A DNA stretch of 47,199 nucleotides, the filler included, from Catajapyx aquilonaris (Eukaryota): the NCBI GenBank assembly GCA_000934665.2. It is 2 parts of 2 records of this genome, joined end to end, with 100 filler letters (N's around TTAATTAATTAA, not from the genome) between each part and the next. Parts side by side here need not be neighbours in the genome. Positions count along the whole stretch, not along the records: positions 23,661 to 47,199 come from JYFJ02005664.1; 1 more part is not named here. One strand, given 5' to 3'. The position numbers and the translations under genes are program-made. This document shows, piece after piece, positions 3,025-47,072 of the stretch; the stretch's first letter is position 1, and each line of letters opens with the position of its first letter. The notes under the pieces are model-generated. The model had not been told where the DNA came from, did no database searches, and saw nothing but the letters and a program-made list of their open reading frames with translations.

Positions 3025-3101
<77 letters not shown>

Positions 3102-3803: not shown

Positions 3804-3846
<43 letters not shown>

Positions 3847-6800
3847 TATTTATTTACTTATTTAACCCCGTGATCGAGCTCGGGGGGGGGGGGGGGGGGG
3901 GGNGGGAGGTAGCAAACCCCCTCCGAACAAAAATCCTGCGTACGGCCCTGCCTGGTGCCCATTATGCCATTGGTACATGGCTGTCGGTGGGGGTCGGATT
4001 CACCCTGTATAAACTTCCTAACCGAGGAGACAGGAGGATACTCGCTACGCGGTGAGAAGGTTCGAAATATTATTTTGGCCATAGCTCGAAAAAGCAGCAG
4101 AAATTTGCAATTCTGAGGATACATTCTCACACTTGCTCAATTGAATAGCTCTTATAAAGTGATTTTACGCTGAGAGCCAAGGTTTGGTGAGCCTTATTGC
4201 GTTCTTTGGCTGGCTCAGGATTACCAACTTGGAACAGTAGCGTTGGAAACATTTCAACGGATACGGATTGTCACCATTGTCAACTAAAATAATTATGAAA
4301 CATCACAGAATACAGTAGGCTATTTAATAGCCTACTGTATTCTGTGATGTTTCATAATTATTTTAGTTTTTAGGTGTACTAGTACACCTGTAGTGGTACT
4401 CCTTAGGTATCCTTAGGGACCGTACTCTTTGGTAGGCCTACTTCTTGAATTTTGGCACTCCAATGTACAGTGGAGTGGTTAACCCCTTGATTTATGCTTT
4501 CAATGAGGATCTAGAGACTACCTTCCTCCGCAGTACCAACCTGTAGACCTGGGAATAGCGATGTGCGGTGTGGTTGGGCATGAACTGAGCCAACTGTGAC
4601 CAGGTGTCTGGAGAGGAGAGTCCGCATGCGCGCCTGAATGCCATGAAAGAAGGGACACCATGCTCCCTGGCCCTTTGCATGTTGATGGAGGCCAGGTCCA
4701 TCCCAAATGGCTGGCCCTGCTTCTGGAAGAGGTGGTTGGTCACCTGCTGGGTCACAGAGTCGTCCATGGCCTGGGCCACCTGGTTCACCAGGCCAAGGGT
4801 CAGCTCGTCGCAACGACCAGCCCTGTACAGGTCAAAAGGCTGCCGGAGCATACCGCTCAGGTCGTCCTCGCCTAAAGCATTTAAAAACACATGTAGCTGA
4901 AACACAGTCGTTTCACATCTTCATCATGTCGTTTGGTACGATACGTCGCGTCGCGTCGTGACTTACCGATGAACCGATGCGAGTAGCTCCACCTCTGAAC
5001 CTTGGAGGGAAGCAGTGAGTGTCCGAACCTGAATGCTGCTGTGATGAAGGACGAAGGCACCGTGGCCTCTGTGTCCGGGTCGTACCCCGTATAGTACCCT
5101 GACTGGTCCAGGATTAGTCCGAACCGCTGCATCACCGTCTTCCCTAGGACCATCGGGAGGAACTCGTTGAAGGTCACGTGCTGGGTGACCGCTGCCACGA
5201 TGTGACGGGACTCCTGCACAGGTTTGGACAATATTATTATTGGTGACATACCATACACAACTCCTATCCGGACCTGGCTCTTCTGCAAAGCTAACCGGGT
5301 CAATATCATCAGGAGCAGCATGACGAAAGAATCCAAAATGGCTATTCACATATCACACTTATACCTGGTACAGCCTTTCGTCGTCCCAGTGCGGGTTGAT
5401 CTTGGCAAGTAGTCTGGCGATTCGGTTGTGCTCTCGCATGAATATGACATGCAACACTGCCAGAACCAGCTGCTCGTTCACCCTGTTGTCTCCTGAGAAT
5501 GAGAAATTGAAACATAAGTGGGTGATTATGTGGGTTCAAAGCCAATTTCAACTAACAGTCATCCTTAAACTTTTGGAAAGCGATACTGACTAAATAACAT
5601 GTTAAATTTTATACTGTACGTGTAATACAATGATAAGAAAATGTCAACGGCTCCAGATAATTGCAATAAACAATTGCATCCAACAATATTCAGAAAATTT
5701 GCCGAGTAAAAACCCCCCTATACGCATCCAATTGGGTATGTAAGTTACTTGTAGAAAATAAAAAGCTTATTTTAAAACAATGTTGATGCATGGACTTTTC
5801 TAATATTTAGCTACCCCAAGTATAGGGAGAGGAAACAAAAGCTCCGAGAGTCTACACAATGCATACCCTTAAAAAACAAAAGCGTAAAGTTTTACGCAAA
5901 TGTGAAATATGTTTTATTAGCCTACTGTCTGTCCATTTCAATTTCGCGAATGACGGCATTTCCTGAGTAAAATACTACGTACCGTATCTGAAAGTCAAAT
6001 TGAGTTTTCGAAACAATAAATAAATAAATAATAAATAATAAATATATATAAAAATGTCATCAAGCTGTTCACTTGTACCTGCAAAGAAGCAAAAGATATC
6101 GTCCGATGGCCTGAGACATCCGTCGTCCGGTTGGTCTGTCTTGAGCGGAAGGAGGTCCTTCAGACGGAGGGTCCTGAAGGCGGGCATGGTCTTCAGCTGA
6201 CCTCTCTCGAAGGACCTCAACTGTCTGCCGATGGACTCGCTCGAGCCGTACACAAAGTTAGCGTCCAGGTAAGACGATATCGCGTTCATCTGCACGCGGG
6301 GACCTAAGGTCAGAGTGGCAGTCATCATCATCACCACTACAGCAATGATAACAACACAACAATAATGTCACAAATTTATTTATCACGGGTTTCTGCCAAT
6401 GACATTGAAAAAATTGACCGCTCAACCGGCGGCCATCTTGAATAGAATTGAACATCCGGCGGCCATGACTTACTAGACTACTAGAGGGAAAGAATTGCCG
6501 GAAATTTCGTAAGTTTAAAATGAGGCTTTGCTAGGACATCAAGTTCATAGGGTGATTATAATCAACAAATATTTAACAAATGGTTTTAGATTTCGGATTC
6601 AGCTTGTCTAAATAGATTCCAAGTTCAACGTCCTATAGGGGCCGTCCATAATCCGCGCGGACAAGTGAAGGGGGGGAGAGGGGTTGCACTTTGTCCGCTT
6701 TTGTCCGTACAGGGGGGTAGAAGTCAGTTGTAGTCTTGTACGCGCGGACAATAAACGTCAAATGAATATTAAGGACTAGGCCGTTTTTTAGTCAGACCTC

Positions 6801-9800
6801 TCAAATATACCGTCATGCCTCTGAAAAAAGGAATTTGTGTGTAGATATCAAAAAATAAAAAATACCAATATATTGAAAATAACACTTTCAGTGTGGCGAA
6901 GCGGGGGCAGGGGTCAAGGAGGCCATGTCCGCGCAATTTTTAGGGGGGGGGGAGGTAAATTGTCCGCTTCTGTCCGCAAAGGGGAGGGGGGAGGTACAAA
7001 AGTGAAAAAATCTGTCCGCGCGGATTATGGAAGGCCCCATATACAGGCGGCCACTTCCGGTCTCCAGGGTTCACTCTATCCTTGTTCATGCGGGTAACCG
7101 TATATGATTTAGATTTTGAAATTAGTTTCCTGAAGTATAATTATCACAATAACTATCAAAAGCCCTGAATTCTGCCAAGTACTGTACAAGCAACCACCCA
7201 AGCAAACTGCATTTGAAACGTGATTTGATTTACTATGGCCGCCATGAGAGTAGAGGGAAAAACAAAGGGTTTTGTCGGCTTCAGGATGATGGCTCTGGCG
7301 GCATTGGGTTAAGCGGTCTATTTTCTCTATGCCATTGGTTTCTGCCCCTTCGAATAAGATGTCAGCAATGTGAAAATAACAAACTAGACCTATTCACACT
7401 TGAGGTTTGTCACAATTCGTGCCTTTTTAGAACGCCACTTTGTCCATTATTGAAATAATCCAAGAGCGTCCTTATAGACCACGTCGTGTGCATTGGCTAA
7501 TGGTGTTAATCAATGCATGATGTAGTGTACAATATGCCCTACCGATGCGACAGTCGATTCGTACTCCTGCTTCGGACCTGGCAAAGTTGATGCACTGCTG
7601 CTTGTGCTTCCGGTAGAAGGTATCGTCCGGGGGTATCCTGATGGGCATGCAGTTTGGGTGCGGAGGACGACGGGTACGGGGGTACGCCCCACCCGGACAG
7701 CATTCAGGGTCCTTCTTATTGCGGTCTGAAACGCAGCTCATCAAGCATTACACTCCCCAGTTCGTACAGTAGTTGTCCACATACCCCGCAAGCTCCCACA
7801 ATATGCAAGTGAGTGTAGTACAGTTATACCTTTGGTCTCGACTGTCAAGGTGAGGTCGTGATCAATGATCTGACCCCAGGCGACCAGCATGAGCGTGGCT
7901 GAGTGATCGTGCACGTCCACCTCCTTGTGCACATGAGCAGACACACGTCTCGGGCTAGGCAAGGGACTGCCGTCCACCGAACTCGATCTGGGACTTCCTA
8001 TACCTGCATCGGAGTACATACAACGCAGGGGTCATACACACGGCACCCATGAAAATGGACCCGTTCCGGACCGGGTCCGGACCGGTCTGAACATTGGAGT
8101 AATTTTTAGGATTAGGTAACTTGTTATCTACTCTCCTAGTCTGGTCACCCTGAATAACTAACCTGAACCCCCCCCCCCCCCCACACACACACACACACAC
8201 CCACATCAACATAATTATATAGTAACAGATCAACTACCCACGTGGATAACCTACCCAGAGACCTAATTCTGAAATTATTTCAGATCCGTTAGGCTGGTGA
8301 TAATCCAGTGGCTAAGTCACAGCCGAACTAAGCCCCGCAAGTAAAAAATAGTCAAACAGGGTGAACGTGATTCAAAATTTCCATTTTACGAAGATATGAT
8401 GAAGATATTAACCCACAACTGTGAAATTATTTAATTAGGTATTGAACCATGCTGGACGAAAGGGTGAGTATAAATAAATTTTTTCTGTGCACAATACTAC
8501 GTAGGAGAAATTACGATTTAGTTACGTGCGGCCATGTTCACCCCATCTTACGTGCGGGAAACGAGTTCTGCTAGAGTTTTTAAATGTGTTTTTAAGGAAC
8601 GGCGTACGTAAGCTGTAACAAATATTACCACCACTGGAAAGGTTCACCTTCACCTCCTAAAAATGAACAAGACACTTGCTTTGCAATTTCTTGATTTAAA
8701 AAATAAGTTTGCACACTATGAAAATTTGGTGGTTTCATAGGGTAGCCTTTAACATTTATTTCCTTGCTTACCTATGCCGACACAGGTGAATTATTTTGGT
8801 CTACAGCATGGTAAGCGCTGCCGCAGTGGCATGAGGTCATTGAGAGGCTCATTTTTATGACACATGTTACCTTAAATATTCATTAATGACATTTTTGAAA
8901 TTGTGGCCAAGTTCACCCAGCCGGCCAACGTCACCCCATTTGACGGTACGTGGAAATTAAACGATCCCTCTCTCCATAACGATGTAAGCATGAAGAATTT
9001 CGTTTCATTTTTTATGTAGAAATTACAGGAGAGTGCATCAACCTAAATAGTGTATCGGTTTCGGAACGGGTCCAGCTGTATAATTATGAATGCCCCACGT
9101 GGATGCGAGCGAGAGAGCATACCGTCTCCGTAGGCGACTGGCAGCAAGCGTCTGAAGGGCGTCATGGCAGCCCCCCACTGGGGGTGCTTCAGATTGTTGC
9201 ACCTTCCGTCTAGGGAACGGTGTCGCGCGGGCTTGCCGCAGTCGGACGCAGACGACGTCATCATGCGGTGCGGGCAGTAGGAAGCCACTGGCCCTATCCG
9301 GTCTGTGGCCATCAGGGGAAGTCCTCCCCACGTCGCCTCCTTGCCCAGGCCATATCTGCAGTCCAGTTCAAATAAAAACATCATTATTGTTGTGAATCAC
9401 CCTGAATGACGACAAATATTAATTAGTGATGCAAGTGCACTGACTGCCTGGCGATGATCCTGGCTGTGGTCAGGAGGGCCATTCCTAGCTTGCCCATCTC
9501 TTGCGGTTTCATCCTGTCCGTGGAGCGGGCTGGTCTCACTAGTCCCACCCTCCTGCGGGCCAACTCCCAAGCCTTCGTCACGGACGTCGCTGTTACGCAG
9601 ATGTCGCTGGACCTAATTACCAAAACACAAAGCACTTGAAAAGGGTCTACAAAGTGCGTCACGATGGTTATTGTCTTTATCCAATAAGCATCCCCGTCCT
9701 AGGTCACATACAGTCCGTCGATCACGCATAGTAATTATAAAAAATATATTTATCTGTCAGACACATATTTCCATGGCATGATCCGTCACACCTGCTTTCA

Positions 9801-23760: not shown

Positions 23761-24375
23761 TTGGCAATTTTTGTGAAAATGGTTTTTAAACGTGTTCGAA
23801 CTGTATCCTGACATAAGATTCGAGTTCGGCGACTTCGTATCATTGCTAGGAATCGACTCCTTAATCGTCAATTTCCTGCGAAAAATACGGTTCCGATATT
23901 GTAACAATGGAGGCCATTTTCATTATTGGCCGCCATATTGGCTTCAAACGTGTTCAAACTGTATTCTGACATTAGAATCGTGTTCAGCGACTTCGTATTG
24001 CTAGGAATCGACTCCTCAACCGCCAATTTCCTGCGAAAAATACCTATCTTGTAACAATGGAGGTTATTTCCATTATTGGCCGCCATATTGGTTTCAAACA
24101 TGTTCAAACTGTATTCTGACATTAGAATCGTGTTCAGCGACTTCGTATTGGTAGGAATTGACACCTCAATCGTCAATTTCCTGCGAACAATACCGATTTT
24201 GTAACAATGGAGGCCATTTTCATTATTGGCCGCCATCTTAAATCCTAATGGACGAAATTTCCGGTTCCACTTCCGGAATCATTCCTTATGGTCCTAGGAA
24301 GCACCATGCCAAGTGGCACACTTTCATCATCAAATGCCAGGTTTTTCCGAAATATGGCCCTTACCGCTTCCACTA
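23761..24375. mobile_element. Non-autonomous element with ~3 internal tandem repeats of 150-158 bp
   Basis: Units start at 23788, 23946 and 24096; ends in TACCGCTTCCACTA like the element at 1-663. Confidence 0.7.
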
Positions 24376-25245: not shown

Positions 25246-25689
25246 TTGATGGACGCAGGAAAACCTACGACGCCTAAGATAAGTGGTGTGGTTGAGATCT
25301 GATGGATAGCCTGATGGCAAATGCTGCAGACATTGCTGAGACATATCCTATAATCCATGTTATATTAATGGATGGGAGGGATGCAGATATTCTGGACAAG
25401 TGCTACATGAGCAAGTCATGTGATGAGGCATATTGTGGCTATGTTGTAGAGTGATTATTCTAAATAATCTGACATGTGGGAATATAGCGGCAAAGGACCG
25501 ATGTAATGCAGGCTTCCTGGCGCCAAACGGCCATAAAAGGGCTATTAGAGCTGGTCCCAGAAAAGGGATAATCCAAGGGGTTCGCATCAGTATGTTTCGT
25601 AGCACCTTGCACCCCTCCGGCCTTACAGGCCACGTCGATAGTGCCGGGGAAAATCATACAGTGAGAAATAATATATTACAAAACAAGAG

Positions 25690-26245
25690 GCTCTTTTACA
25701 AGGATTACCAACCATTTTCTATTGTGGGGGAGGAAGGATTTCGCGAATACACTTGGACACTGAACCCTTCATACAAGCTTCCTAATCGGAAAACCTTATC
25801 CCAATCCACTTTACCTGCCATGTATGAAGTCTTCGTCGTAGAGACGAAAGAAAAACTTAGTGGGGCAGCAACAGTCTGTTTGTCAAATGATTGTTGGAGG
25901 TCATTAGCAAATGACAGTTACCTGGCTGTCATTGCGCACTACATTGGCGAGTCTGTCCTGCTGGAATGCGATGTGACGGAGGGGCGACACACTTCAGGTA
26001 ACTTGGGTGGAGAAATTCAGAGCATAGTATCCGACTGGGGACTGGCAGGAAAGGTGGAATTGCTGGTGACTGACAACGCCAGTATCATCGTGGGTGCTGC
26101 AGAAAAGCTAAAATGGAAGCCCTTCGGCTGCTTCGCTCACGGCCTCAACTTGGTTGTAAAGAAGGGGCTAGAACCTGCCGATGTTATTCTCCAAAAAGTC
26201 AGCCAAATAGTGTCCTATTTTCGCAGAAGTCCTCTAGCAACAGTG
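25690..26245 (+). pseudogene. hAT (Ac/ZBED-like) transposase fragment
   Basis: QPFSIVGEEGF, PSYKLPNRKTL, DCWRS, SYLAVIAHYI, VTDNAS, CFAHGLNLVV. Confidence 0.9.
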
Positions 26246-26247
26246 TA

Positions 26248-26640
26248 GCCTGCTATGTATACCATGAGGTTGTGGCCAAGAAAGGCCCAAATAAGATGGT
26301 GTCAAGGCTGTTCCACTACATCAAACAGAAGCTGCCAAGTGATTGTCAATCAAGAAAACAATTGCGCCAAGCAGGTAAAGAATATGCTAATGCTGAGCAG
26401 AAGGTAATTGCTGCCAAAACTGTAAAAATCATGAAAGACTATCACAATAGTTGCAAGTTTCAGTGCGCTAAGAAAATCACACATCAACAGAGAGAGGATA
26501 CATTTAAAGCTTTTCATAGTTATGACCAAAATAGGGAACACCATCACATTGTCTCCACAAGCGAAAGGTATGCTAAAAAACGTAACACTACAAGCCATAC
26601 TAGCAGTATACACAGTGTTGATTGTAAAACATTCAAGTAA
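26248..26640 (+). pseudogene. Two short Sola1-like transposase fragments
   Basis: CYVYHEVVAKKGPN resembles the CYLWHEG..RG.NE motif; followed by RKQLRQAGKEY...CKFQCAKKIT. Confidence 0.5.
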
Positions 26641-26815
26641 AACAAACACTTTTTGTATCACCAGTTGTTGTTCTTTGTGTCTTGTGATAATGCAGGACCA
26701 TGAAGGACAAAATAAAATCATGTGATTCGTAAGACATGATAAACATTGGTTTCCTTTATTTGTACTTCTGATTATTTGAAGAGAAAACTAAATTATGTAC
26801 TAAGAAAAGCCCCCC

Positions 26816-26954
26816 CGCGGTAAGGGAAAGAAGCGGCTAAGGGGGTGGAGGCAGGAAGATGCAGAGGCCTACCACGCCGCCTCGCGGTAAGGGAAAGAAG
26901 CCGCTAAGGGGGTGGAGGCAGGAAGATGCAGAGGCCTACCACGCCGCCTCGCGG
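26816..26954 (+). repeat. 67-bp tandem duplication (2 copies)
   Basis: CGCGGTAAGGGAAAGAAG..GCTAAGGGGGTGGAGGCAGGAAGATGCAGAGGCCTACCACGCCGCCT at 26816 and 26883. Confidence 0.95.
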
Positions 26955-27848
26955 GTCCCCTCAGTGGCCGCTTCTTCCCCTTCTGCTGGCCCCAGTGGTG
27001 CCGCCCCAACAACAGCCGCCCCAACCAGAGCTGCTCCAACATCATTGATGTAACACAGATTACGTGTGGTTGGCAAAAGACCCATACGACAGTTATGATG
27101 ATACATCACCGGACCAGTTCAGACGGCCCCCACAACAGGATCCCAGCCCCCCTGAGAGGAGCTGGCGCCTGTTCCCGCGAACTTACCTCCCAGCAAGGGG
27201 GAGGACGGGACTGCCGCAGCAGGGTGCTCGTGCCCACCACCCCCTATGACCCTATGACCACCGATGTACGGGATGCCCTGTGAGAATGGTATTCTATACA
27301 CTGGAATGATAATGTTACGGATTGTCAAGAACAAATACTACTGTCCGATTGCTTCATTTGCAACAGACGTCAATAACCTACCAAGTCTTGCTATAAAAAG
27401 TACCATTAAACGCCGCAAATGGGCCTTCCAACGTAAACAAATCTGACTACAGGCTCATACATTTCATATAGCTTATGTAACGCTTAAAGGGTAGTCAGAA
27501 TTTCAGACTTTCACCAAGGCTTAGTTATGCCACACCCTGTAGGCGTTGCATCATGCATCATTTTTAGACAAATGACAGTCATTATAATTATATAGGTATT
27601 ATTTAAAATTTTATAGAATCCATACTGTATTTATAGTTTAATACTGTATTGTGAAATACTTTAGGTTCAATTCCTTAATTTTGGAATCTTAGCTTAGGCA
27701 TTATTATATAACTTTATTGATATAGATGTTATTTTGTCCATTGAATCACATCATATTTGTTTTCTGCATAACATATCTCGTGCCCTATACGTTGCAGGTA
27801 CACACCCACAAGACACAAGAAAATGAACAATTTGGCGTGCCTCACGTG

Positions 27849-28359
27849 TCAGTTGAAAGTGTCACCAATCAAAATGACGCTGTCAACTACCCGGTTGAAT
27901 TCCTCAACTTTCTGAATCCACCAGGTCTACCTCCCCACAAACTGTCTCAGGCTGGGGTCACCAATCATGCTCCTACGAAATCTCGATCCCCCAAAATTGT
28001 GCAATGGCACGCGGCTGCAGGTGACTGGATTGACACGATTTGTCGTACAAGCTGTGGTACTCACAGGTTGTGCCAAAGGGGAGCGCGTGATGATCCCGCG
28101 CATACCTCTCATCCCGAGTGACTACCCCTTCCAATTCAGACGCCTGCAGTTCCCTGTCAAACTCTGCTTTGCCATTGCAATCAACAAGGCGCAAGGGCAA
28201 TCCCTCGGAGTGGCGGGGATTGATTTGAGGGAGCCATGCTTCTCACATGGCCAGTTTTACGTAGCGTGCTCCAGAGTCAGCTCTAGAAACAACCTCTACA
28301 TTCTCACACCTACCACGAGTATGACCCGAAACATTGTGTACAAAGAGGCGCTCATGTAA
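27849..28359 (+). pseudogene. Helitron Rep/Hel PIF1-type helicase C-terminal fragment
   Basis: [16 protein letters not shown] / [17 protein letters not shown]...RRLQFPV..FAIAINKAQGQS...FSHGQFYVACSRV...NIVYKEAL; one frameshift. Confidence 0.93.
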
Positions 28360-28409
28360 TTGAGTCCCTTTTACGTTCACTTCCTGTTTCAATAAGATTA
28401 CGTAGCCTG

Positions 28410-28920
28410 TTGTGTCGTCACATTGCGTACAGCCATTTTTACTCTAGCTTGATCTACATTGTTAAGGCTCTGGAAGTCATAGCATATGATATGCATTTGG
28501 ACTCTGTATCGCCAGATTTTTCTGGAGGGTGGGATGTAGATTCAAAAAGTCAGGCTGCATCTTTAGTGTCAGCCATATGTTCATTGCATTTTTTGGTTAC
28601 ATTTTCGGTCATGTATTACTTTCTAAGTCACCTGGAGGGAAACACAATTCGCCTCCAAGGCACCACTCTTGATGTTGTTGATGCATATTATGCAGAAATT
28701 CATGTCATTAAGGATACGTACAAAGAGCTGAGGGCATCTGTGATGTAGAGTTTCAAAAGGTGTATTCACATGCCATGCGAATAGCGAATCAGCTTGAAGT
28801 GTACACCACGGATAGTGAAGTGTCAGACAAATAGGTCTAGTACGCCAGCAAGTACACCAAAAGAATACTACCTGCGTAACATTGGCACACCATTTTTAAA
28901 CAACATAATTGGTCAGTTGG
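28410..28920 (+). pseudogene. hAT transposase fragment (THAP/ZMYM-like subgroup)
   Basis: IVKALEVIA...AASL...LQGTTLDVVDAY; PRIVKCQTNRS...PKEYY...PFLNNIIGQL. Confidence 0.7.
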
Positions 28921-28924
28921 ACAG

Positions 28925-29065
28925 GCCAACGACTTCCGACCCTGCGAAAGGTGAGAATTCAGGTCTATACTACGTTTCGGTCAACATATTTGTGCGAGAG
29001 TGCGTTTTCCAACACGAACTTCGTAAAAAATAAGTACAGAAGCAATCTGTTGCAAGAACACCTGC
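28925..29065 (+). pseudogene. hAT C-terminal dimerisation fragment (Buster/SPIN-like)
   Basis: STYLCESAFS...KNKYRSNL. Confidence 0.85.
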
Positions 29066-29909
29066 AAATTGCACAACTGGCTTCAGCTTTAATTCTGAGG
29101 ATGACGCCGGCGACACTTCATTCCTTGGTAACATTAGTCGAAGGAAACCCACCTGTATATTTAATTAACACGTAATACAGGGTTATTTTGAATGTAAAGG
29201 CAAAAGCGTCATTAGCAAATGCGTCAGTGAATTCCTTCACGGAATCTTGTTCAATAATGCTACGTGAGACGCGACAGTGGGTTCAGAGGAAATTAGATGG
29301 CAACTCGGGCATTTATTGTGCATATGCCAAATACTGTTGCAGACACTTTTCATTAATATAATACGTGGCTAAGGATAATAACTGCTCCCTCAGGACATGT
29401 TCAAAACATATTCTTGTGCTTCCGGGAGTCTCGCTCATCTTTTGCAGAGTAAGATCAATACTTGCGTCCGGTGGCAGCGGATACCCACCTAATCACACTA
29501 GTGGGTTGGTCAATATCAAAGTGAGGCATAAATATTTTGTGGGCAAGGAATAACTAACTGCTGTGCCTGAAAATCTTTGGTGGAATAGCCCTCGTGAAAA
29601 GTTGAACGCTACAAAAAGATATCAAGCGTATAACATCATATTAATTGCACAACGATGTTCTTTGCCTTTAAACATTGCAGATGGGCAAGCCAGAACATTA
29701 TGTCAGCCAAGGCCCCCGGATATTTTTCCCGGAGGAAGGAGATCAAGAGATATTGTTGCCACCAACCTACAGCCTTGACAGGTGGTTCATTCTCCTTGCC
29801 TATGTTACATTAAAAACCTCACATACACGAGCATGTTTTCTCAGCTATTGGGACTCTTGCAAGCGCTGATGAAGACTTGATAGATGCTGTGTTAAAAATC
29901 AAGAGCCAA
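29035..29909 (+). repeat. Long direct repeat, copy 1 (~875 bp)
   Basis: Aligns end to end with 32231-33116; roughly 20 substitutions and small indels by eye. Confidence 0.95.
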
Positions 29910-30299
29910 CACGAGGTCGACGTGGTTCATATCGTGCGTCGGATTTGTCTTGGAGGGCACCAACCAGGTCATGGCGCCAACAGGAGGGGGCTTGGGAAGA
30001 AAATACGGGTAGGAATGAGCAGGCCCGGATATTAACACCCCCTGGGTCCTCTTGGGAACAGGCAGGTGTTATCAGCTGTTTTAAGTGCGGAGGCTTAAAT
30101 CATTTTGCTAGGTATTGCCGACAGGGTTATCAGAGCTCGGGAAACGGATCAGGGCCCTCCGGGTTCCATGCATAGGTGCCAGGGGGGGCCGTCAGACGAG
30201 TGGTCAATCAGAAGGAGTCCGAGACTATAGAAAATGAGTCCTCTCCCCTGGTTAGACTGCATATAGGAAACAAAGAGGCCACCTTCCTAATTGACAGAG
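29910..30299 (+). mobile_element. Ty3/gypsy LTR retrotransposon fragment: gag C-terminus with zinc knuckle and start of aspartic protease
   Basis: CFKCGGLNHFARYC (CX2CX4HX4C, 30077-30118); slippery heptamer GGGAAAC at 30139-30145; PLVRLHIGNKEATFLIDRG is a protease N-terminus truncated at the D[ST]G active site. Confidence 0.85.
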
Positions 30300-30776
30300 G
30301 AGAGCAGTGGTTCTGATAGTGAGGTCCTTTCATTGCAAGGGCAAAGTTCACCAGCATCTGAGTTTGAAGAGGTGCCCGGTCCTGGAAAGAAAGACCACAG
30401 GAGGGCTAAAAGGCAGAGCGTCCCCTTCAGCGAAAAGGTTGCTAGTGTGCTAGGGGAAGAAGCAGCAGAGCATTTCCGATCTAGACATCTAGCGTGGAAA
30501 GCAGAGTGGGAGCACCTTAGGGCTCGGCAGAGGGATTGGGACAGAGGTGACCAAGAGAGGGCTGAGGCATTCAAGACTCTAAAGCCTATCATAGGGAAGG
30601 GTAGAGCACAGTCAGTCACCTATCACGGCATCACATCCGCTAAAAGATCCCGTTCGACACCTAGACGAGAGACTAAGAAGAGCCAGAGGGCCAAGAGCTC
30701 AAGCGAGGTCACTTACCCGAGAGTCAACAGGGTTGTCAAGTTTGACGAAGGCTTCTACTATGGCGGATCCCATTGA
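30291..30776 (+). CDS. Uninterrupted ~160-codon orphan ORF (5'-truncated, no ATG), overlapping the nucleocapsid start by 17 nt; probably viral
   Basis: Stop-free frame from the protease junction; acidic/Ser-rich start, charged helical middle, R/K/S-rich end; no recognisable family. Confidence 0.5.
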   Translation: MTEESSGSDSEVLSLQGQSSPASEFEEVPGPGKKDHRRAKRQSVPFSEKVASVLGEEAAEHFRSRHLAWKAEWEHLRARQRDWDRGDQERAEAFKTLKPIIGKGRAQSVTYHGITSAKRSRSTPRRETKKSQRAKSSSEVTYPRVNRVVKFDEGFYYGGSH

Positions 30777-31534
30777 GGCCTTCCTTGATACGGCAGATCT
30801 GGAGAGCATGGATTCCTGGGCAGCTATGGCCAAGGAGCTTTCAGACTACTCCTATCAGGGCTTTGACCCCAAGGTGACAGCCAAGCAGTTTCTGGCCACT
30901 GCTGCTGCAGCCAAAAGAGATGCCAAGAGAGATCTCCAGAGCATCCTGGCTATTTACCTCAAGAGAGGGACAAATGTCCAGAAGATGATCACAAAAGGCT
31001 TCAAAAAGGAGCTGGGAAGACAAAATCACTGACCTGCACACTGTTTATGGCATCAAGGGCCACAGGTCGGGGACAGGGCTTGCCCCAGAGGTCTTAACAA
31101 TAGGGAGAATCGCCACAGTTTATGGCATGGGAGTGTGCGCAGCTCTCCAAGTTCAGGCTGCCACCCCAGTTGTTTCCCATGCTGGCCTCCCTAGGTGCAT
31201 GATGACCCCATGTTTTGCCAGCATCATCCCCACTGAAGCTGATGGGGGTGGCATATGGGACAACTTGGCTTATGCCCACATGATGTGGTCAGCTAACTTT
31301 GACAGGGTGATCAATAAGACGAAGCCCAACTGGGTGGAAGACATGGTGGCAGTGGCCAACTTCTGCACTCTTGCCAGAGATGGCAGTATCTACACGAGGG
31401 CAAGGAAGATAGCAGCCCTGGAGAAATGGGGCATCATTGTGGTGGCCAAGGATGGAGGGGCCACAATTGCGGATGCCTATCGCCAGGCCATCCTAGATGC
31501 GGCCAAACTAGCAAAGGCCAAGATGGGCATTTAG
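30760..31534 (+). pseudogene. N: Endogenous viral element: Phenuiviridae-like (phlebovirus/tenuivirus family) nucleocapsid N gene, ~257 aa, single +1 frameshift near 30990-31020
   Basis: Colinear motifs YSYQGFDP, RDLQSILAIYLKRGTN..KM, YGI, LTIGRIA, LPRCMMTPCFASIIP, AHMMWSANFDRVIN and RKIAALEKWGII match the phlebovirus N pattern FAYQGFD / RGN..KM / LTLSRVA / YPR.MMHPSFA / AH.L...FSRVIN. Confidence 0.9.
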
Positions 31535-31595
31535 ACCATCTCAGGAGAGGGAGAAAGGGAGAGAAAAGAGAGAGTCAGATAACGAAAGGAGATAA

Positions 31596-32230
31596 ATGAT
31601 GGACGGTCTGGTGGCAATACTAACACTGGTGGCGATATACACGAGCCCCAGTGCCACTGCGCCCGACGCCGCAGTGATAAGGGAGGGCCTTGCCTTCATA
31701 CCAGGTGGGGACTTCCTCCTCTCCGGCAACCATTGGACCATCGTGACAGATGTCCCCTAACAGCACTATGACGGCTTGATGGGTAGCCTGTAGCGGGACT
31801 ACCAGAAATTTAATGCTTTTCTTTCAGGTGCCAGGAGGGACTTGAGGGGGAACGAGACGGACAACGAGTTTGCTACTTTAATTCAGTACCTTAAGGTCAA
31901 GGAAGGAAGCCACCTGCTTCAGGAAATCAATTGGCTTGTCCATCGCATACAGGAACTGAAGGGGGTTTTCGCGGTTCCTAAGAGGACTAGAGAAAAACGT
32001 GCGTTGATTAATGCGGGTGGCAGTGCACTTAAATGGCTTTTTGGCACTTTGGATAATGACGACATGAACATAATTAATAAGAAATTAGAGTCCATGGGGA
32101 ACCGGAATAACAAGCTATTACATTTGGTCAAAGAACAAGTGAGTGTTTTGGATTCAGTCAATGCACGGGAAGTTAGGACCAAGAAACTCTTGGGAAAATT
32201 AGTTAATGTCACAGGTGATCTGAGTAGGCC
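31596..32230 (+). pseudogene. env: Errantivirus/baculovirus F-type envelope (env) N-terminal fragment
   Basis: One frame with two stops: signal peptide MMDGLVAILTLVAIY, GLAF...WTIV, furin site REKR followed by fusion peptide ALINAGGSALKWLFGTLDNDD and a heptad region; truncated by repeat copy 2. Confidence 0.85.
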
Positions 32231-33116
32231 TACAGAAGCAATCTGTTGCAAGAACACCTCCAAATTGCACAACTGGCTTAAGCTTTAATTCTGAGGATGA
32301 CGACGGCGACACTTCATTCCTTGGTAACATTAGTCGAAGGAAACCCACCTGTATATTTAATTAACACGTAATACAGGGTTATTTTGAATGTAAAGGCAAA
32401 AGCGTCATTAGCAAATGCGTCAGTGAATTCCTTCACGGAATCCTGTTCAATAATGCTACGTGAGACGCGACAGTGGGTTCAGAGGAAATTAGATGGCAAC
32501 TCGGGCATTTATTGTACATAATTATGCCAAATACTGTTGCAGATACTTTTCAATATATGCCAATATAATACGTGGCTAAGGATAATAACTGCTCCCTCAG
32601 GTCATGTTCAAAACATATTCTTGTGCTTCCGGGAGTCTCGCTCATCTTCTGCAGAGTAAGATCAATACTTGCGTCCGGTGGCAGCGGATACCCACCTAAT
32701 CACACTAGTGGGTTGGTCAATATCCAAGTGAGGCATAAATATTTTGTGGGCAAGGAATAACTAATTGCTGTGCTTGAAATTCTTTGGAGGAATAGCCCTC
32801 GTGAAAAGTTGAACGCTACAAAAAAATATCAAGCGTATAACATCATATTAATTGCACAACAATGTTCTTTGCCTTTAAACATAGTAGATGGGCAAGCCAG
32901 AACATTATGTCAGCCAAGGCCCCCGGATATTTTTCCCGGAGGAAGGAGATCAAGAGATATTGTTGCCACCAACCTACAGCCTTGACAGGTGGTTCATTCT
33001 CCTTGCCTATGTTACATTAAAAACCTCACATACACGAGCATGTTTTCTCAGCTATTGGGACTCTTGCAAGTGCAGATGAAGACTTGATAGATGCTGTGTT
33101 AAAAATCAAGAGCCAA
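32231..33116 (+). repeat. Long direct repeat, copy 2 (~886 bp)
   Basis: Aligns with 29035-29909. Confidence 0.95.
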
Positions 33117-33469
33117 TTAACGTCTGCAACAAAGCTTTCTTTCAGTCCAAGTGGCACCAGAAGTGATGATGACAGACGGATTGGCCTTCATACCTTCTGG
33201 ATGCCGGTGCGGTGGTTCCTTGTGACCTTCATCTCTCATGGAGAACTTAAGGACATTGCACTATCGGACCCAAGGAGTTTCAAGAACCTGCAATGCGCCG
33301 AAGCGTCTCGTGACGATCATATTCTTCGAAAATTGGCTGAACTTACCAATCACGCTGAACTGTGCAGAGAATTAATAAAATTTGCAAATCATTACGAAGA
33401 CGACAATGCAATGGTCCGCTGTGGTATTCAAAGGGCGTTTGAGAGGCAGTGCATGAGAGATCTTCATGG

Positions 33470-33750
33470 CCTTGCATGTTGCATTGTTAATTTTGGCCAG
33501 TCCCACGCTGTGCCAGTCCTTCAACAAATTCGCAGAAAAAGTGTGTGTATATTTTGTCAGAACTTATATCCTTACATATGGAGCTGAAGAGGTCTCATAC
33601 AACATCCAGGGCTTGATACGTTTAGCCTCTCATGCTGGTCTGCATGGATCTTTAGATAGATTTAGTGCATTTCGATTCGAAAACCACCTGCAAGTGCTGA
33701 AGCAGATGCTTAGAGGGATCACATAACCATTACAACAGATTAATAGACAT
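33470..33750 (+). pseudogene. CACTA/CMC-type transposase fragment
   Basis: FVRTY..TYG...VSYNI..L..L...HGSLDRFSAFRFENHL..LK motif. Confidence 0.75.
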
Positions 33751-34009
33751 GTAGTACAGAGGTCGTCATCCTATCACCTGTGGAATGAGAACCATCAGCT
33801 GCCAACAGGTGGGGGGGGGGGGGNGGGGGAACTATACTGATGACCAAAAACCAGTGCTTGCACCAGTGATGGTGAGAGCACCACCAGCAACAGCGAATCG
33901 GCTGAAGAGGACGACTTACTCAGCCGATTCACCAAGTCGAAGATCTCAAACAGGCACAGGTTGGTGAAGGCAGAGGCACAGAACCTTGTGAAGATGTGGG
34001 TCGAGGGGT

Positions 34010-34572
34010 GTTAACAGATGACGCATTCTTGGGGCAGAAAGTTTTAATTGACCTTTTTATCCAGTGTAACACCACAATCCCATCGAGTGCTGCTGTCGAG
34101 AGATTGTTCTCGATGGGAAAAGACATCCTCAAGCCCAAAAGAGCCACGCTCTCGGACACAACTTTTGAAAGATTGGTTTTTATGAGGGGAAACCATCATC
34201 ATTGGTTAATAAATGAATGATGGAGTCATGTATGCTAATGCTAACCAATAAACTTTTTTGGTGTTTGAATCATTTTGTTTAATACTTTTTGTATGGAACA
34301 GGTAATAGCGTAACTGAATTAGGCGTATGTTGTAGCAGTGCTCTCTAGTTAACTTTAGCCCTCTTTAGCACTCTAGGTCTGTTTTTATTTTTTAAAGGGT
34401 CCTAGATAAAAAAGGTTAAATTCATAAAATAAAAGCTAACTTTAGTTGTTAACGTTAACTTCCATTAATTTTTCTAGCCCTTTAACGTTTATCATTTAAT
34501 GAAGTTAAATTTTTTAGTTACTTGATTGACGGTTAATGTAGTTAAATTTTCGGTTAACTGTGCCCACCACTG
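34010..34572 (+). mobile_element. 3' end of a hAT transposon (dimerisation domain, 3' region, TIR)
   Basis: NTTIPSSAAVERLFS...PKRATLSD.TFE; AATAAA; GTTAAC-rich subterminal repeats; ends TGCCCACCACTG. Confidence 0.85.
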
Positions 34573-36400
34573 GTTATATGGATATTTACCATGCTGATAT
34601 AAAATGTATAATCCCTGCACCATAAATACACACTGGATTTTTCAGATTCTTACAGGGTAAACTGGTGCTTCCCACATGGCAAGTATAGCAATGCTATGTC
34701 GAAATTTGCAAGTGTTGCACTTACTGCAGTTATTATTATTGCAACTATAAAATACTTTGGTGGTGTGGCTATTGCCTCTTTCAGATGGAAATGAACCCAA
34801 GCCATTTAAATGGCCCAGGACCACGGAACATTCTGAGCTGCAGACATGAATTGATACAGATGCAGAGGAAACATGACCCTTTCCCATGTGTGACTCATTC
34901 TTGGAGCAATTTGTTCCATCACTCAGGCAGGAACAAGGACTTCTAGTCATCTCAAATGATGGTGGCAACCAGGCCCATGGGTCTTCTTCCCAACTGATAC
35001 CCTCACGTCGTCCCCGCCAGTACCCCGCAAGGGATCTCTTGATGGTTAGGGGATTGAAGCCCTTCCCTTCCCTCCTTATTCCCACAGGACTCGTATGCCA
35101 TCCATCAGGTTCTTCCATATGAGTCAAGTGCAGGAACTTTCGCTTCGTCCATGAAGTCACATATGATTCACTAGGCAAGGTTGGTTATGTAACTTCATCA
35201 TTCCTCTTTACCCTTAACTGATGCTCATGTTGGCCCTGAAAAGGGCCGTTTGTAATGCTGCTCCTGAAAAGGACGGGTTGGCTGAAGTGCTGCTGCTGCG
35301 GATTTCGGAGGTCGGTCGTTCCTGGTTGAAGGCTGGAGATGAAGTGAAGTTGCCCGCGCCTTGGTGCTGTTTTTTATAGGCAAGGCGCAGACGTTGTGGA
35401 GGTCAAGCCAGAGCTGGTTGGTTCTGGCCTTGAAGGCTTTTGGTGGGAAATGAGCTGGGGACAGGAATGGTTTGGAGGGCAATGCGAGTGAGAGGAAGTT
35501 TGACGGTGAGACGAAGCCGGCAGGGCCGGGCATGCCTGCCGGCTCACCATACCTCATCATCCTTCATGGCTCTTCCCAAAAGACTGGGGTTGCCAGCAGA
35601 TAGCAAGGATGAGGTCCTCGCTACCCCCACCACAACCATCAGAAATTTTTTTGGGAGACTGGTCAGGTACTCGCAGAAATTGGGAGGGCGAGAAATACAA
35701 CAGAGTGCCGAATGGTCAGGTTATGCTGGGTTGCTGTTTGCGGTGTCCCTGGAGACATCCAACAGCAAAGAACAAGGTGAGGCAGGGGTGCCTCTCACTG
35801 CTGAGTTGTTGGAACCACCAGACCGCAACACCATCACCGTGCAGGGGACGAAGGAGGGCAGGAAAACCTCCCGGCTTCCGTTTGAAGTGCCTTCTACTTG
35901 CTGCATCATTGCCAACAGGTAAAGCATATGATATAAAATCCAGATGTGATGCTGTGTGGATGTGCCCTTTCCAATCTGCAAGAAGAGGAAAGTAGGTTTT
36001 AATTTTCAATTTATATCACACAGTCCGGACATTTCAAAAATGGCAATCACAACACTTAGCATGCAAATGTCATAAAATATACTAACAGTACTCCCTTTTC
36101 CCTGAAAAAAATTATGTCCAAGTCATGTTACTTTCGTGGCAAAATTAATGTAAAAAATCTGTTACTGGCTAATATTGGACACTTTTTGGAGAGTACGAAA
36201 ATTTTTCTAATTTCCCAGCCGAAGGGTCGAGAGTAGGCCACGTGTACAGAAAGGCTCAATTTCCTGATCTCCGTCCACCAGACGTACCGAAAGAAGTGTT
36301 CGACTCGATTGTGACGATTGAATCCTTGAATCTAAGAGTAGGCAATTGTCCATAACGGAAATTTTTTTCACAACAAAACAATGAGGTACATTGTAAGTGT

Positions 36401-37660: not shown

Positions 37661-38390
37661 CATGCTGCAAGTGCCAGTCGGTGGCAGTTTATTGATTACT
37701 AGTGTTTCTAAGTGTTTTATAAAACCGACCAGGGTTGTCGCCACCTACGATTTTTCCCCACCCCCTCGCGCGCGCTTGACCCGTGACTCTGAAACACCCT
37801 GTATTGTCCACTTACAATAATTTTAATAACATTTAAAATGCAACAATTCCTCATTGTCATACTCCAATCGAGGTACTGCCGCATCGATCAAATAGCTTTG
37901 ACTATATGAAATGCTGCATGTACCCCTCGAAAACTGGGCACACACTATTGTAATTAAAATTATGATCATGTCAATAGCACATTTACAGCTTCAAATGCAA
38001 AAAATATTGCAGCCATGACATTCAAGCCCCGGTTTTCGCTACCTTGAGACAGCTATTTAAAAACTGAGTTTCACTTTTTCATCTAATATTATGAGGAACT
38101 CCCAATAAAAACATGGTAGTGCACTACAAAATCAATACTACTAACTACAGGGGGAAAAAATCCAGCCTAGAGTTGAAGCAACATTGCATAAAATTGTGGG
38201 CTCATAACACAACCTCACAATATGGCAACAGTGGATGACAATTTCAAACATATGCAGCCCTACACCTGGCACTATTGACATCACAGAAGTTAAACTCGGC
38301 CCAAACTCGTTGTATCCCATTGTAGTAACTATCACAGTAATCCATCACATAGCGTAGTGCTACTAGTACATAACAGGCATTTCTTTTATA

Positions 38391-38919
38391 CAGGGTGTAA
38401 ATGAATTCAGCCGACAAACTTGTAGGGGTAATAGAGGGGACCAAGACAAACATATTTGACATAGGAACCCGTGTCCAGAAACGCCATCTAGAGGGGGTTC
38501 ATAGACAAGGAATGGGTGCGCTCAGACCCCGTCAGGCGAGAGGCGCTAACGAGCGGACCATTTAGTTGCTAGGTGGCGTGTGGATTGTACACAACTTTGC
38601 AATTCGCCATAACTTGGCAACAACAGAGTTGTTGTTTATTATCTGCGCGCTACCTAGCATGCTGATTTTAGTTGTTAGGTGGCTCTGTTGTTGCCAGGTT
38701 ATTGCGAAATGCAAAGTTGTGTACAATCCGCCCGCCACCTAGCAACTAAACGGCCTGCTCGCTAACGCCGCTAGCCTGACGCGTCTGAGCGCACCTGTTC
38801 CTTGTCTATGAACCCCCTCTAGATGGCGTTTCCGAACACGGTTTCCTATGTCAAATATGTTTGTCTTGGTCCCCTCTACTACCCCTACAAGTTTGTCGGC
38901 TGAATTCATTTACACCCTG
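38391..38919. mobile_element. Foldback MITE, Tc1/mariner type
   Basis: TA-CAGGGTGTAAATGAATTCAGCC...GGCTGAATTCATTTACACCCTG-TA with ~240-bp arms. Confidence 0.9.
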
Positions 38920-39574
38920 TATTCTTTCAGTGAACTATTATTTGTCTCCCTTTGTCATTTTTCAAGTTAAGCATATTTTGTCTCTCATGAATGCTATTAT
39001 TGTCTTGTACATATTTCTCTAATGGCGAACAACCAGTAAAGGACAATTATATAATAGCACAATTATTTACCTGATCACAAAAACTCTCGTTTCATCAGAG
39101 CTCTGGCGGGTTGTAACAATCATCCTCCCCAGATGAAGGTCAGCTTGCAGAAGTTTCAGGAAGTACTGCTTGCCCCAAGCACCTTGTGGCATGTGGAACT
39201 AGTTGCGGTAACCTGTAAACAATTCCAGCATTAGATTTCAACTGTCACTCCCAGGACATGTTTTGTACATTACAAAATTTAAACACTAATTCCCCAGATT
39301 AGTAAAAAATTCTGCATCCAGGAATCCGGTTCACCTCCCACTTTGAAATTTTCTTTGTGCCAAGTGGCATCTGCGGAAGAGTCAAAACCACACCTCTCAA
39401 CCTAACTTGTCCAAACGTGCAAATCACTACTGCTCGCACTCCACTCCCTAAACAACTAATCCAATCTGCACACCATTCAGTTTGTCAACAACTCTCCACA
39501 CCCCTTATCCATACTCCCCATGCAAGGAGCAATACTCATAAACCAACAATGGATGCACCGCCCTCAAAATTGTA

Positions 39575-41345
39575 CAGTGCTGGACACATTAGCCATCTCT
39601 GAATGTTTTTTTCCCCGTCGGCGACGGCGCGCGTTACCTGGCAACCGCAGCCAGCGGGCCAATTCAAACATCAGCATGATTATGGAGAGTGCTTATAGTG
39701 TCCTTTTCATTGTTGCACTGTTTACAAATCGAGTGAGTGACGCGGACGACCCAGCGACGTGCCTCTGCCTGCTTACACATCAGTAGCAAGGGATATGCAG
39801 GGAAAAACGGGAAAATAATGATGTTAGAAGCAAGTCATTTTGGGGAAGTGTTCCCTGCTGGACTCAAATAAAGGTTATCGTCCACAGCGTATATTCCATC
39901 CCCGAGGAGGGGGTGACAATTGAGATCAGGGGCGTGCTAATTGAAAGTGCGTCAACTGACGGATTCTTTCGGTTTTTGTGTCTGTTCCGCGTAATTCGAC
40001 CACTGCTAAGACGAATGGAGACCATGTCCCGTCTGTCTCGTAATTTTTCCCCGTAAGACGTCATATTTCAAAATGGCCTCCCCATATATACGAGTAAGTG
40101 TCATTTGTGTCATATTCGCAATCGCGCCAGGAAGAGGAACAGGACTACTATCGGATTTTTTAAATACTGGCCCCTGCGTTTGACTCTAAATAACTCCAAG
40201 GAAAATGGTCCAAAAAAAATAACGTTATACATCATTAGAAAGCTTGTTTCAATCTACGTTAACATATGTGAGAGTCATTACCTATCTTCATTGTGTAATT
40301 TTTATCGCAAGAAGAACACGGAAAAGTGTCATTTTCTGACTGGTTGCCGAAGTTACACTGCAAAATGAATTTTTATGACACTTCTCGGAGGCCGAAAATT
40401 CCCCCTGAGAACTCTGGATAGTGCAAATCTTTGTCTCTCTAATGATATATTTGAAACTCAGAAATCGCCATTTGTGTAATCATAATTAAGTTAATTGCAC
40501 ACCTCAATTATCTCGGATGTTTATAATCCTAATTACTTTGCGAATGTATGGACGGCAATCCAGAAATGTGCGTGATAAAATTTCACTGTGCTCTATTGCA
40601 CTGAAAATTTTAAAAGTATTGTTTTAGTAGGTTTAATAGACAAGTACCAAGCCCGCTTTCTGTTGGCGGGAATGGACGCCGATACTTTTAAATACTTTTA
40701 ATTTTTAAGTGTAATAGAGCACGATGTATTTTTATCACGCACATTTCTGGCCAGTATTTAAAAAATCCGATAGTAGTCCTCTTCCTCTTCCTGGCGCGAA
40801 TGTGACACGAATCACACGTACTCGTATATATGGGGAGGCCATTTTGAAACATGACGTTTTACAGGGACAAATTACGAGACAGACTCGGTGTCTGACATAC
40901 GGGATATGGTCTCCATTCCTCTTAGCGGTGGTCGAATTACGCAGAAAAGACACAAAAACCGAAAGAATCAGTCAGTTGACGCACTTTCAATTAGCACGCC
41001 CCTGATCTTAATTGACACCCCCACCTCAGGGATGGAATATATGCTGTGGACGATAACTTTTAATCGAGTCCAGCAGGGAACATTCCCCCAAAATGACTTG
41101 CTTATTTTCCCGTTTTTCCCTGCATATCCCGTGCTACTGATGTGTAAGCAGGCAGAGGCACGTCGCTGGGTCGTCCGCGTCACTCGCTCAATTTGTAAAC
41201 AGTGCAACAATGAAAAGGCCACTATAAGCACTCTCCATATGCTGGGTGTTTGAACTGGCCCGCCGGCAGTGGTAGCCAGGTAATGCGCGCAGTCACCAAC
41301 GAAAAAAAATAATTTGGTGACGGCTATTAAATATGTCCAGCACTT
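39575..41345. mobile_element. Large non-autonomous Tc1-like foldback element with ~590-bp inverted arms
   Basis: Arms ~39575-40172 and ~40749-41345; starts TA-CAGTGCTGGACA, ends TGTCCAGCACT; non-coding AT-rich spacer. Confidence 0.85.
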
Positions 41346-46072: not shown

Positions 46073-46858
46073 TTAAGGGCTACCAAAATCACAATTACGC
46101 GAAGACGCACTTTTTCCAGCCACGACTGGATCTCCAGACTTACGACCTGGGCGGATGGAGGGGTAATACTTCAAATTACCATAGTCATTGAAATAGGACC
46201 ATTCAAGGTATTCCACATGATACGGATTTTTCTTACGGGCAGCAGCACACTCATCTGCATACATAGCTGGCGTGTAAATGGCCTTGTTACGACACTGCCT
46301 TTCTATTGCACTATGCATAGAGTCGCACTCCATTTGAGTGCGACCCTTCACAAGATATTTCTGGGTAATAGTAACCCCATGCATCATGGCAGTTTGCAGC
46401 AACGCGTTGCTAAGTGTGCAGTTGCGATTTTGAAAATTGCATCCATCGCTGTACAGAATTATGGCATCTCCCAAGTTGGTGTGATCAACGATGAACTTGC
46501 ACAATATTGTAGCGAATTCGTTGGCAGTGATGTGCCCTTCACCCTCGTGCCAAAGATAACAATACCCCTCCCTTGTTTTCAGGTCATACATGGTAAAGTT
46601 ATGCACGATCAACTTCATTTTGTAGTACAACGCAGAGGCATTCAGTTTAGGTGAGAGTAACACCGACTGCATATCTACAGTGAACACCTTCACTTTGGTG
46701 TCTTCAATGTTTTTGTCACTCTCTTTCTGTGCACATGCTTCTTCTTTCAGCTTAATATGAACCCTGTACTCCTCTTCACCGATGTTCCCTGCTTCATGGG
46801 CGACGCAAGTATCGCATTGATCTTTCCTGTCACAGAAGGATACAGAAATATTAATTAT
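46073..46858 (-). pseudogene. Transposase catalytic-core fragment (Sola1-like DDD)
   Basis: RKDQCDTC, VDMQSVLLSP, LYYKMKL..HNFT, CYLWHEGEG..ANE, YSDGC.FQNRN, KGRTQMECDSMHSAIE; both ends truncated. Confidence 0.8.
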
Positions 46859-47072
46859 GATCTAGTAAGTGAGAAGCATTAAAGGGACACTCCACTCAAA
46901 ATACAAGTTGGATTCTAAAAATCGGGCAAAAAATACTGATTTCGAGGGTATAAGCAGTTTTCCTGAGAGACGAACGGTAAGGCCAGGACGAGCCGTCAAA
47001 GTTCGGACATTCGAATCTGGCGCAAAAGAGCAGCGCCTCTTCCGGGTATGGGCAGAAATAGTCGGAAATATT

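Follow-up and report, generated by a model that had tools for sequence, protein, structure and literature searches.

A full-length phenuivirus-like nucleocapsid gene in the genome of Catajapyx aquilonaris, probably a decaying non-retroviral endogenous viral element

How does a gene from a virus that makes no DNA come to lie in the DNA of an animal? Phenuivirus-like RNA viruses have no DNA stage, and the question is raised by a nucleocapsid (N) gene of their kind in the genome assembly of Catajapyx aquilonaris (GCA_000934665.2). The window, that is, the whole stretch of DNA that was analysed, is 47,199 nucleotides (nt) long and consists of parts of two records joined by 100 filler letters. Positions 23,661 to 47,199 come from JYFJ02005664.1, and the N locus lies within that record. 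The best explanation, which is held here with good confidence, is that the locus is a non-retroviral endogenous viral element (EVE), namely the whole N gene of a divergent phenuivirus-like virus that was fixed in an animal chromosome and is now a pseudogene.

The gene can be read from its start codon to its stop codon if a single change of frame is allowed for.

30760 to 31534, plus strand: full-length phenuivirus-like N gene, recognised by its two reading frames, Pfam, a match to PDB sequences and its predicted fold.

The first frame (frame A) starts with an ATG at 30760, is open over 30760–31029 and ends with a TGA at 31030–31032, which gives 90 amino acids (aa). The second (frame B) is shifted onwards by one base; it is open over 30989–31531 and closes with a TAG at 31532–31534, which gives 181 aa. 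Both frames overlap over 44 nt (30989–31032), and exactly one +1 frame change lies inside this overlap; no internal stop is found in N on either side of it. When read through with an X at the break, N comprises 257 positions and contains the motifs YQGFDP, RGTNVQKM, LTIGRIA, PRCMMTPCFASIIP and AHMMWSANFDRVIN. An initial annotation of the window, made from the sequence alone, had joined the open frames across one +1 frameshift into a protein of about 257 aa, from the ATG at 30760 to the TAG at 31534, and had quoted a series of ordered motifs together with a stretch from the middle of the protein. The frames agree with this join, and the motifs and the quoted stretch are all present in the X-joined N. 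Raw reads had also been proposed as a check on the frameshift, and a read contig of 1736 nt carries it with 0 differences to the window in 3/3 runs (described below). It is confirmed that the N gene is a real pattern, far beyond chance.

The assignment of N to the Tenuivirus/Phlebovirus nucleocapsid family (PF05733, Tenui_N) is based on its profile match, its fold and its conserved residues. The two pieces pass the PF05733 cut-off each on its own and match consecutive parts of the profile, the frame A piece at E 1.5e-5 (25.2 bits, profile 23–74) and the frame B piece at E 5.7e-8 (33.1 bits, profile 79–223). The X-joined N reaches E 5.4e-18 and 65.9 bits (cut-off 25) over positions 23–223 of the 224 in the profile. 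Using phmmer against the PDB sequences, 12 phenuivirid N proteins were found along with 2 rows due to chance (E 0.26). Toscana virus N matched best (E 3e-14), with residues 7–226 of the query aligned to residues 12–230 of 253.

The AlphaFold2 model of N was obtained with a mean predicted local distance difference test score (pLDDT) of 91.4 and a predicted template modelling score (pTM) of 0.83, though it was built on a 36-sequence alignment (N and 35 relatives) and leans towards the family fold. The predicted fold is all-helical with an N-terminal arm, like the solved phenuivirid N structures. A Foldseek search of the PDB with this model placed the N proteins of Granada and Toscana viruses first, with E values from 2.8e-11 to 1e-10 and template modelling (TM) scores of 0.73–0.80; the lowest E value, 2.8e-11, belongs to Granada virus N, and Toscana virus N reached TM 0.78/0.80. 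The N protein of Rift Valley fever virus (RVFV) followed with TM 0.73–0.78 and the severe fever with thrombocytopenia syndrome virus (SFTSV) N protein with about 0.72. Among the 50 matches listed from a fold search of BFVD, 37 are named, and all of these are bunya- or phenui-like nucleoproteins, capsid or S proteins, for example those of Dar es Salaam, Manawa, Gouleako and Ronne viruses, Wenling crustacean virus 7 and Lihan tick virus; the other 13 are nameless. The identity of N to these listed matches is 14–28%. In the 36-sequence alignment, N keeps all five invariant columns (M1, G34, R69, G70 and R116) and all six near-invariant ones. The family claimed by the initial annotation is therefore borne out by the Pfam profile, the PDB sequence match and the fold, and two of the checks that it had named, HMMER against the Tenui_N profile and a structural comparison with RVFV N, came out positive. 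That N is a full-length nucleocapsid of the Tenuivirus/Phlebovirus family is confirmed.

The distance between N and any catalogued virus is large. When 1.84 billion cluster representatives were searched exhaustively with HMMER, 241 matched at E ≤ 1e-3 and 19 at E ≤ 1e-10, but no match reached E ≤ 1e-30. The best representative is 31% identical to N (E 5.5e-18), and the highest identity among the top five is 33%. Since the representatives come no closer than 31–33%, the donor virus is unknown, which agrees with the failure of the initial annotation to match it to any known species. To judge from its sequence, the donor is a very divergent phenuivirus-like RNA virus and not a known one. The ten best relatives sit on contigs of 990–1447 nt, which is the size expected of monocistronic S segments. 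A word-index protein search returned nothing with the frame B piece and, with the 36-sequence alignment, two of its own members only. The same piece gave 11 pattern matches in a scan of IMG/VR, none of which was confirmed, and no usable match in the protein Atlas. The phlebovirus segment-end motif, with at most one mismatch, was found 40 times where 52 matches are expected by chance, and none of these adjoins N. Only phenui- and bunya-like N proteins are homologous to N, be it in the PDB, in Pfam, among the representatives or among the named BFVD matches. Together with the host setting, this supports the claim of a non-retroviral EVE.

The host setting can be assessed from the features around N and from sequencing reads. 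N lies in a block between two copies of a direct repeat, which is called R in the following.

29035 to 29909, plus strand: left copy of R, 875 nt, found by self-comparison.
29910 to 32230, plus strand: inserted block that contains N, 2321 nt, between the repeat copies, delimited by self-BLAST boundaries and composition.
32231 to 33116, plus strand: right copy of R, 886 nt, found by self-comparison.
2424 to 9396, minus strand: multi-exon animal haem peroxidase gene, in eight frames that match successive parts of PF03098, from profile 2–36 to profile 500–530.
27916 to 28356, plus strand: fragment of a Pif1 helicase 2B domain (E 2.7e-11), probably a Helitron remnant.

The reads come from four public runs of one sample (S1) in one study, possibly the sample behind the assembly, and the four runs contain 88–96% of the sampled words of the block; none of the runs listed for the block is of RNA. 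Independently built Logan contigs from three of the four runs were compared with positions 26000–36000 of the window, and 900 further pieces exist besides those listed. The contig of 1736 nt mentioned above covers 29880–31615 at a depth of 19.5, 30.9 and 34.7 in the three runs. The corresponding values for single-copy flanks are 20, 34.8 and 37.1 (26925–27940) and 18.6, 35.8 and 39.7 (33087 onwards). The depth of N equals that of the single-copy flanks and is thus neither the half depth of a heterozygous insertion nor that of a high-copy family. As it tracks the depth of the host DNA, N does not come from a contaminating RNA virus. The full single-copy depth is consistent with a homozygous germline allele, without proving it. 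One other sample only, X5, bears the same species label; its contigs, 32 million letters in all, have zero cover on the block.

The haem peroxidase gene and the transposon remains support the view that the window is animal chromosomal DNA, where the peroxidase gene, located before 23,661, belongs to the other joined record and its adjacency to N is not given by the stretch. The Pif1 fragment has a read depth of 5–10 times single copy, with several variant contigs. These features and the read depth bear out the endogenous copy in an animal genome that the initial annotation had proposed. The joining of the block to host chromosomal DNA is indicated by the host features, by the depth in 3/3 runs and by the k-mers at the left edge, all in one sample.

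It could be argued that the block is an assembly chimera or a contamination, in which foreign sequence has been stitched to the host through R. A two-copy repeat bounds the block on both sides, which is where assemblers can mis-join, the block is supported by a single sample, and the right junction is not bridged among the contigs listed. However, the runs are recorded as DNA ('DNA?'), and N has the depth of single-copy host sequence in 3/3 runs, which an RNA virus without a DNA stage would not show. The first 30 nt of the 1736-nt contig precede the left junction between R and the block, so that junction-spanning 31-mers exist, and another contig (28292–29137) bridges the unique left flank into R. 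The R copies are 2.4% apart and therefore do not represent one sequence placed twice. A chimera or contamination is extremely unlikely.

How the gene entered the chromosome is a separate matter, and the context of N within the block, which the initial annotation had missed, bears on this route: the block has no pol, a CCHC knuckle lies upstream of N and a broken env downstream, and R brackets the whole. All parts of the block are on the plus strand.

29873 to 30175, plus strand: gag-like piece with a zinc knuckle of retroviral type (zf-CCHC, E 2.5e-4, a marginal 21.4 bits against a cut-off of 20.8).
30176 to 30316, plus strand: possible start of a retroelement protease, 'FLID..G'-like, recognised by eye and in frame with the knuckle after one stop.
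30291 to 30776, plus strand: open frame of 161 codons that overlaps the start of N, without a Pfam match.
31535 to 31595, plus strand: purine-rich spacer of 61 nt from the stop of N to the start codon of env, seen in the sequence.
31596 to 32288, plus strand: start of an F-type env (baculovirus F or gypsy-like; Baculo_F at E 8.7e-6 with 25.0 bits, cut-off 24.1; Gypsy at E 0.025).

The GC content of the block is 52–55% over about 29950–31900 (0.43–0.48 towards the env end), as compared with 41–44% in the flanking repeats. The knuckle is a perfect C-X2-C-X4-H-X4-C of the retroviral type at about 30074–30124, and the capsid part of gag is missing. A comparison of the 161-codon frame, and of the frame that precedes the N start, with 151 N relatives, including ones with long N-terminal extensions, gave nothing significant; the best result, at E 0.008, concerned a low-complexity stretch of 55 residues. 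In the env piece, a signal-peptide-like start is accompanied by a furin-like site and by a stretch that resembles a fusion peptide. Two in-frame stops, at 31758–31760 and 31791–31793, interrupt the piece, and it is cut at the repeat boundary, at about position 240 of the 609 in the profile. Its Atlas feature score to Baculo_F clusters of eukaryotes is 0.96, and a word-index search of the piece against longer proteins gave nothing. The env part is covered at about three times single-copy depth with variant letters, which corresponds to about two more copies, and no second copy of the gag-like, middle or N parts was found in the reads at a likeness of at least 90%. The single-copy contig over N ends at 31615, which places the beginning of the sequence common to other genomic copies at about 31586–31616.

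The two R copies differ by 21 substitutions over 875 aligned positions (2.4%; Kimura two-parameter distance 0.0244) and by 2 indels. One interpretation is that they are the long terminal repeats (LTRs) of a deleted env-bearing retroelement in which N replaced pol, which would make the locus an integrase-driven provirus with N as its passenger. The outline is that of a provirus, as direct repeats of 875 and 886 nt with 2.4% divergence exactly bracket gag...N...env on one strand, with the env frame extending 57 nt into the right R and the gag-like frame opening 37 nt inside the left R. Retroelements with RNA-virus genes inside their LTRs are known as well, such as Pao elements that carry a chuvirus glycoprotein (PMC7642597). 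A CCHC gag and an F-type env, as a provirus should have, are both present, if as marginal fragments; pol is absent. Against this interpretation, R lacks marks that are expected of an LTR. Its ends read TACAG... and ...GCCAA, without TG..CA; no target-site duplication flanks it, the flanking pentamers being different; and neither a tRNA-type primer-binding site nor a polypurine tract abuts its inner edges. Contigs within R have a depth of 47–57, about twice single copy, so that there are no solo copies of R elsewhere. Moreover, gag and env both end exactly at the edges of R, for which a provirus would need two separate deletions.

A further objection to LTRs comes from the sequence on either side of R, in which remains of hAT transposons may be recognised.

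28909 to 29172, plus strand: open frame resembling the hAT C-terminal dimerisation domain (Dimer_Tnp_hAT), across the left edge of R (29034/29035).
33021 to 33587, plus strand: open frame of 188 codons that starts in the right R and runs 156 codons into the flank, without a Pfam match.
33906 to 34217, plus strand: second weak hAT dimerisation match (E 0.002), downstream of the block.
25427 to 26245, plus strand: open frame of 273 codons, transposase-like by eye, without a Pfam match.

The first of these frames crosses the left R edge in register. The part left of the edge scores 12.5 bits alone and 17.9 bits together with the R part (E 0.0027, profile 29–75 of 84), a gain of 5.4 bits, where 17.9 bits falls below the cut-off of 21.4. 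It can be proposed with weak to moderate confidence that the left flank and R are old contiguous host/hAT sequence. The block may lie within old hAT copies or between them; a BLASTP comparison of the two hAT-like C-terminal frames gave a weak match (E 0.34). The 188-codon frame, should it be a coding remnant, would support the right R and the right flank as old contiguous sequence. We think that R is a duplicated target, made of old hAT sequence, rather than a pair of LTRs, and a provirus with N as a passenger appears unlikely.

A route that fits the favoured explanation of a non-retroviral EVE can be outlined as follows. By copy choice, the reverse transcriptase of a retroelement would have switched its template to the RNA of viral N and then back again, so that a chimeric gag...N...env cDNA arose. 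The repair of a chromosome break within an old hAT copy may then have captured a fragment of this cDNA, and the same event may also have duplicated 886 nt of the target in tandem; this break-repair step is one that we infer. Since the insertion, neutral decay would have brought one frame change into N and two stops into env.

Several observations weigh against the EVE explanation or the route proposed for it. The protease-like motif has no Pfam support, either as it stands or when read through with X, and 444 nt of unexplained origin, which the 161-codon frame fills, separate it from the N start codon. The Pfam scan, which covered open reading frames of at least 70 aa across the window (188 of 190 whole, one in part, one left out), yielded no match for reverse transcriptase, RNase H or integrase. 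The two retroelement signals exceed their cut-offs marginally (21.4 against 20.8 bits for zf-CCHC, 25.0 against 24.1 bits for Baculo_F), and the gag-like and env parts differ in copy number, so they need not stem from one element. A target duplication of 886 nt is the signature of no standard retroelement integration. Finally, the support for the block consists of runs of one sample in one study, and no bridging piece for the right junction (32230/32231) was found among the contigs listed.

The divergence of R can also be used to estimate the age of the insertion, supposing that the R duplication arose together with it, which amounts to about 1.2% change per lineage. Of the possible single-base changes in N, 3.5% create a stop. 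Under neutrality, N is expected to gain 9.4 substitutions, 0.87 indels and 0.33 stops per lineage, with a probability of 0.72 that no stop arises; one frame change and zero stops are observed. The lesions of N match the neutral expectation from R divergence, and no selection needs to be invoked. N appears to be young and decaying neutrally, without a sign of constraint; if rates between 1e-9 and 1e-8 per site per year are assumed, its age would be roughly 1–12 million years. The initial annotation had called the insertion young or constrained. Its youth is upheld, as the 2.4% divergence of R predicts the state of N, and constraint is not required.

The alternative to neutral decay is that N was co-opted and kept by selection as a form of EVE-derived immunity, either as a protein, for example a 90-residue dominant-negative product, or as a source of small RNAs. 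Full length with a single lesion, the retention of 5 invariant and 6 near-invariant columns and the high confidence of the predicted N fold are what such a history might leave, and expressed or selected copies of bunyavirus N have been reported in insects (PMC6620529). However, the frame change is real in the reads, the preservation of N is what neutrality predicts for the age given by R, and the adjoining env is broken by two stops. Co-option of N is very unlikely, and a functional N protein is most likely not made.

A bolder proposal takes up both of these unlikely ideas in terms of function: either an env-bearing retrovirus-like element carried N as a working gene, or the donor virus is now hindered by the 90-residue N-terminal product or by small RNAs that the locus gives rise to. 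N does sit 61 nt upstream of the env start, at the place expected for pol. This proposal is considered quite unlikely. If it were true, N as a working gene of a retroelement would be to the nucleocapsid what the known captures are to env. Literature searches, which were not aimed at this question, turned up no report of a retroelement that is served by a nucleocapsid gene, and no absence is claimed.

Some other features of the window may be mentioned. An open frame of 262 codons on the minus strand (46076–46861) matches DUF7869 just below the cut-off (E 3.3e-5) and is probably a DNA-transposon protein. The region 34684–35351 is a very high-copy repeat, with a summed contig depth of 680–2380 as against about 20–37 for single-copy sequence and with many joints and loose ends. 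Behind 34004, the read contigs contain 13 extra letters (X1 and X3 at all depth, with one X2 contig there); either these letters are missing from the assembly or the contigs come from a near-identical paralogue. Nested long inverted repeats occur at 38388–38922 and 39681–41239, with arms of 99–210 nt that are 88–97% complementary, in the manner of miniature inverted-repeat transposable elements or foldback elements. Short tandem duplications are present at 23893–24192 (150 nt twice, 91% identity) and 26809–26942 (67 nt twice, 96%).

Elements of the same kind have been described before. Katzourakis and Gifford (2010) reported 9 elements derived from the phlebovirus nucleoprotein (NP) in the tick Ixodes scapularis (PMC2987831), and later surveys, of ticks and of a crustacean, again report phlebovirus-like NP EVEs (PMC10675110, PMC4231630). 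Like the N locus, the Ixodes elements, as described, are DNA copies of the N gene of a cytoplasmic negative-strand phenuivirus-like virus in an animal germline genome, in which most of the gene is recognisable and the lineage is distinct from known exogenous viruses. Unlike them, the N locus comprises the whole gene, start and stop codons included, with a single lesion, lies in a defined block that is flanked by retroelement sequence and accompanied by a duplicated target, and is 31–33% identical to its best representatives.

The association with retroelements has its parallel in mosquitoes, whose EVEs share polarity with neighbouring LTR elements and for which a copy-choice model was proposed by Whitfield et al. 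(10.1101/127498). Similarly, an EVE from NS2A of the flavivirus cell fusing agent virus (CFAV) is flanked by an LTR and a Ty3/gypsy gag (PMC6797480). These LTR-embedded EVEs resemble the N locus in that they are reported to have the same polarity as gag- or env-type pieces and to be of proposed copy-choice origin. The N locus differs in that it has no recognisable LTRs, pol or integration footprint, the bracket being duplicated old hAT sequence as proposed above, and in that no cluster of EVEs or LTR elements surrounds N in the 47-kb window. A third group comprises Anakin, Pao elements with a chuvirus glycoprotein (PMC7642597), and a hookworm endogenous virus with a phlebovirus-like env (PMC9094657). 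Here too, according to the descriptions, a gene of a negative-strand RNA virus lies on one strand between gag and env-type sequence. These are, however, glycoprotein genes that serve as env in multi-copy, pol-bearing elements, whereas the N locus holds a nucleocapsid gene in a single copy without pol. The exogenous N proteins of Toscana virus, Granada virus, RVFV and SFTSV, finally, share with N the Pfam family, the length class of 245–257 aa and the fold (TM 0.72–0.80), but N is 20–28% identical to them, is encoded in host DNA and has its frame broken once.

As far as these sources go, N-derived EVEs and retroelement-associated EVEs are already in print (PMC2987831, 10.1101/127498, PMC6797480), and the kind of element is not new. 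What is notable in the N locus is its completeness, the divergence of the donor lineage and the legibility of the junctions. The same-strand scraps of gag and env, both junctions and the duplicated target make copy choice followed by break capture testable at one locus. As an EVE, the locus would show that the germline was once infected by a phenuivirus-like lineage without close relatives among about 15 billion catalogued proteins, and the divergence of R would make it a dated data point for the virus family's host range and history.

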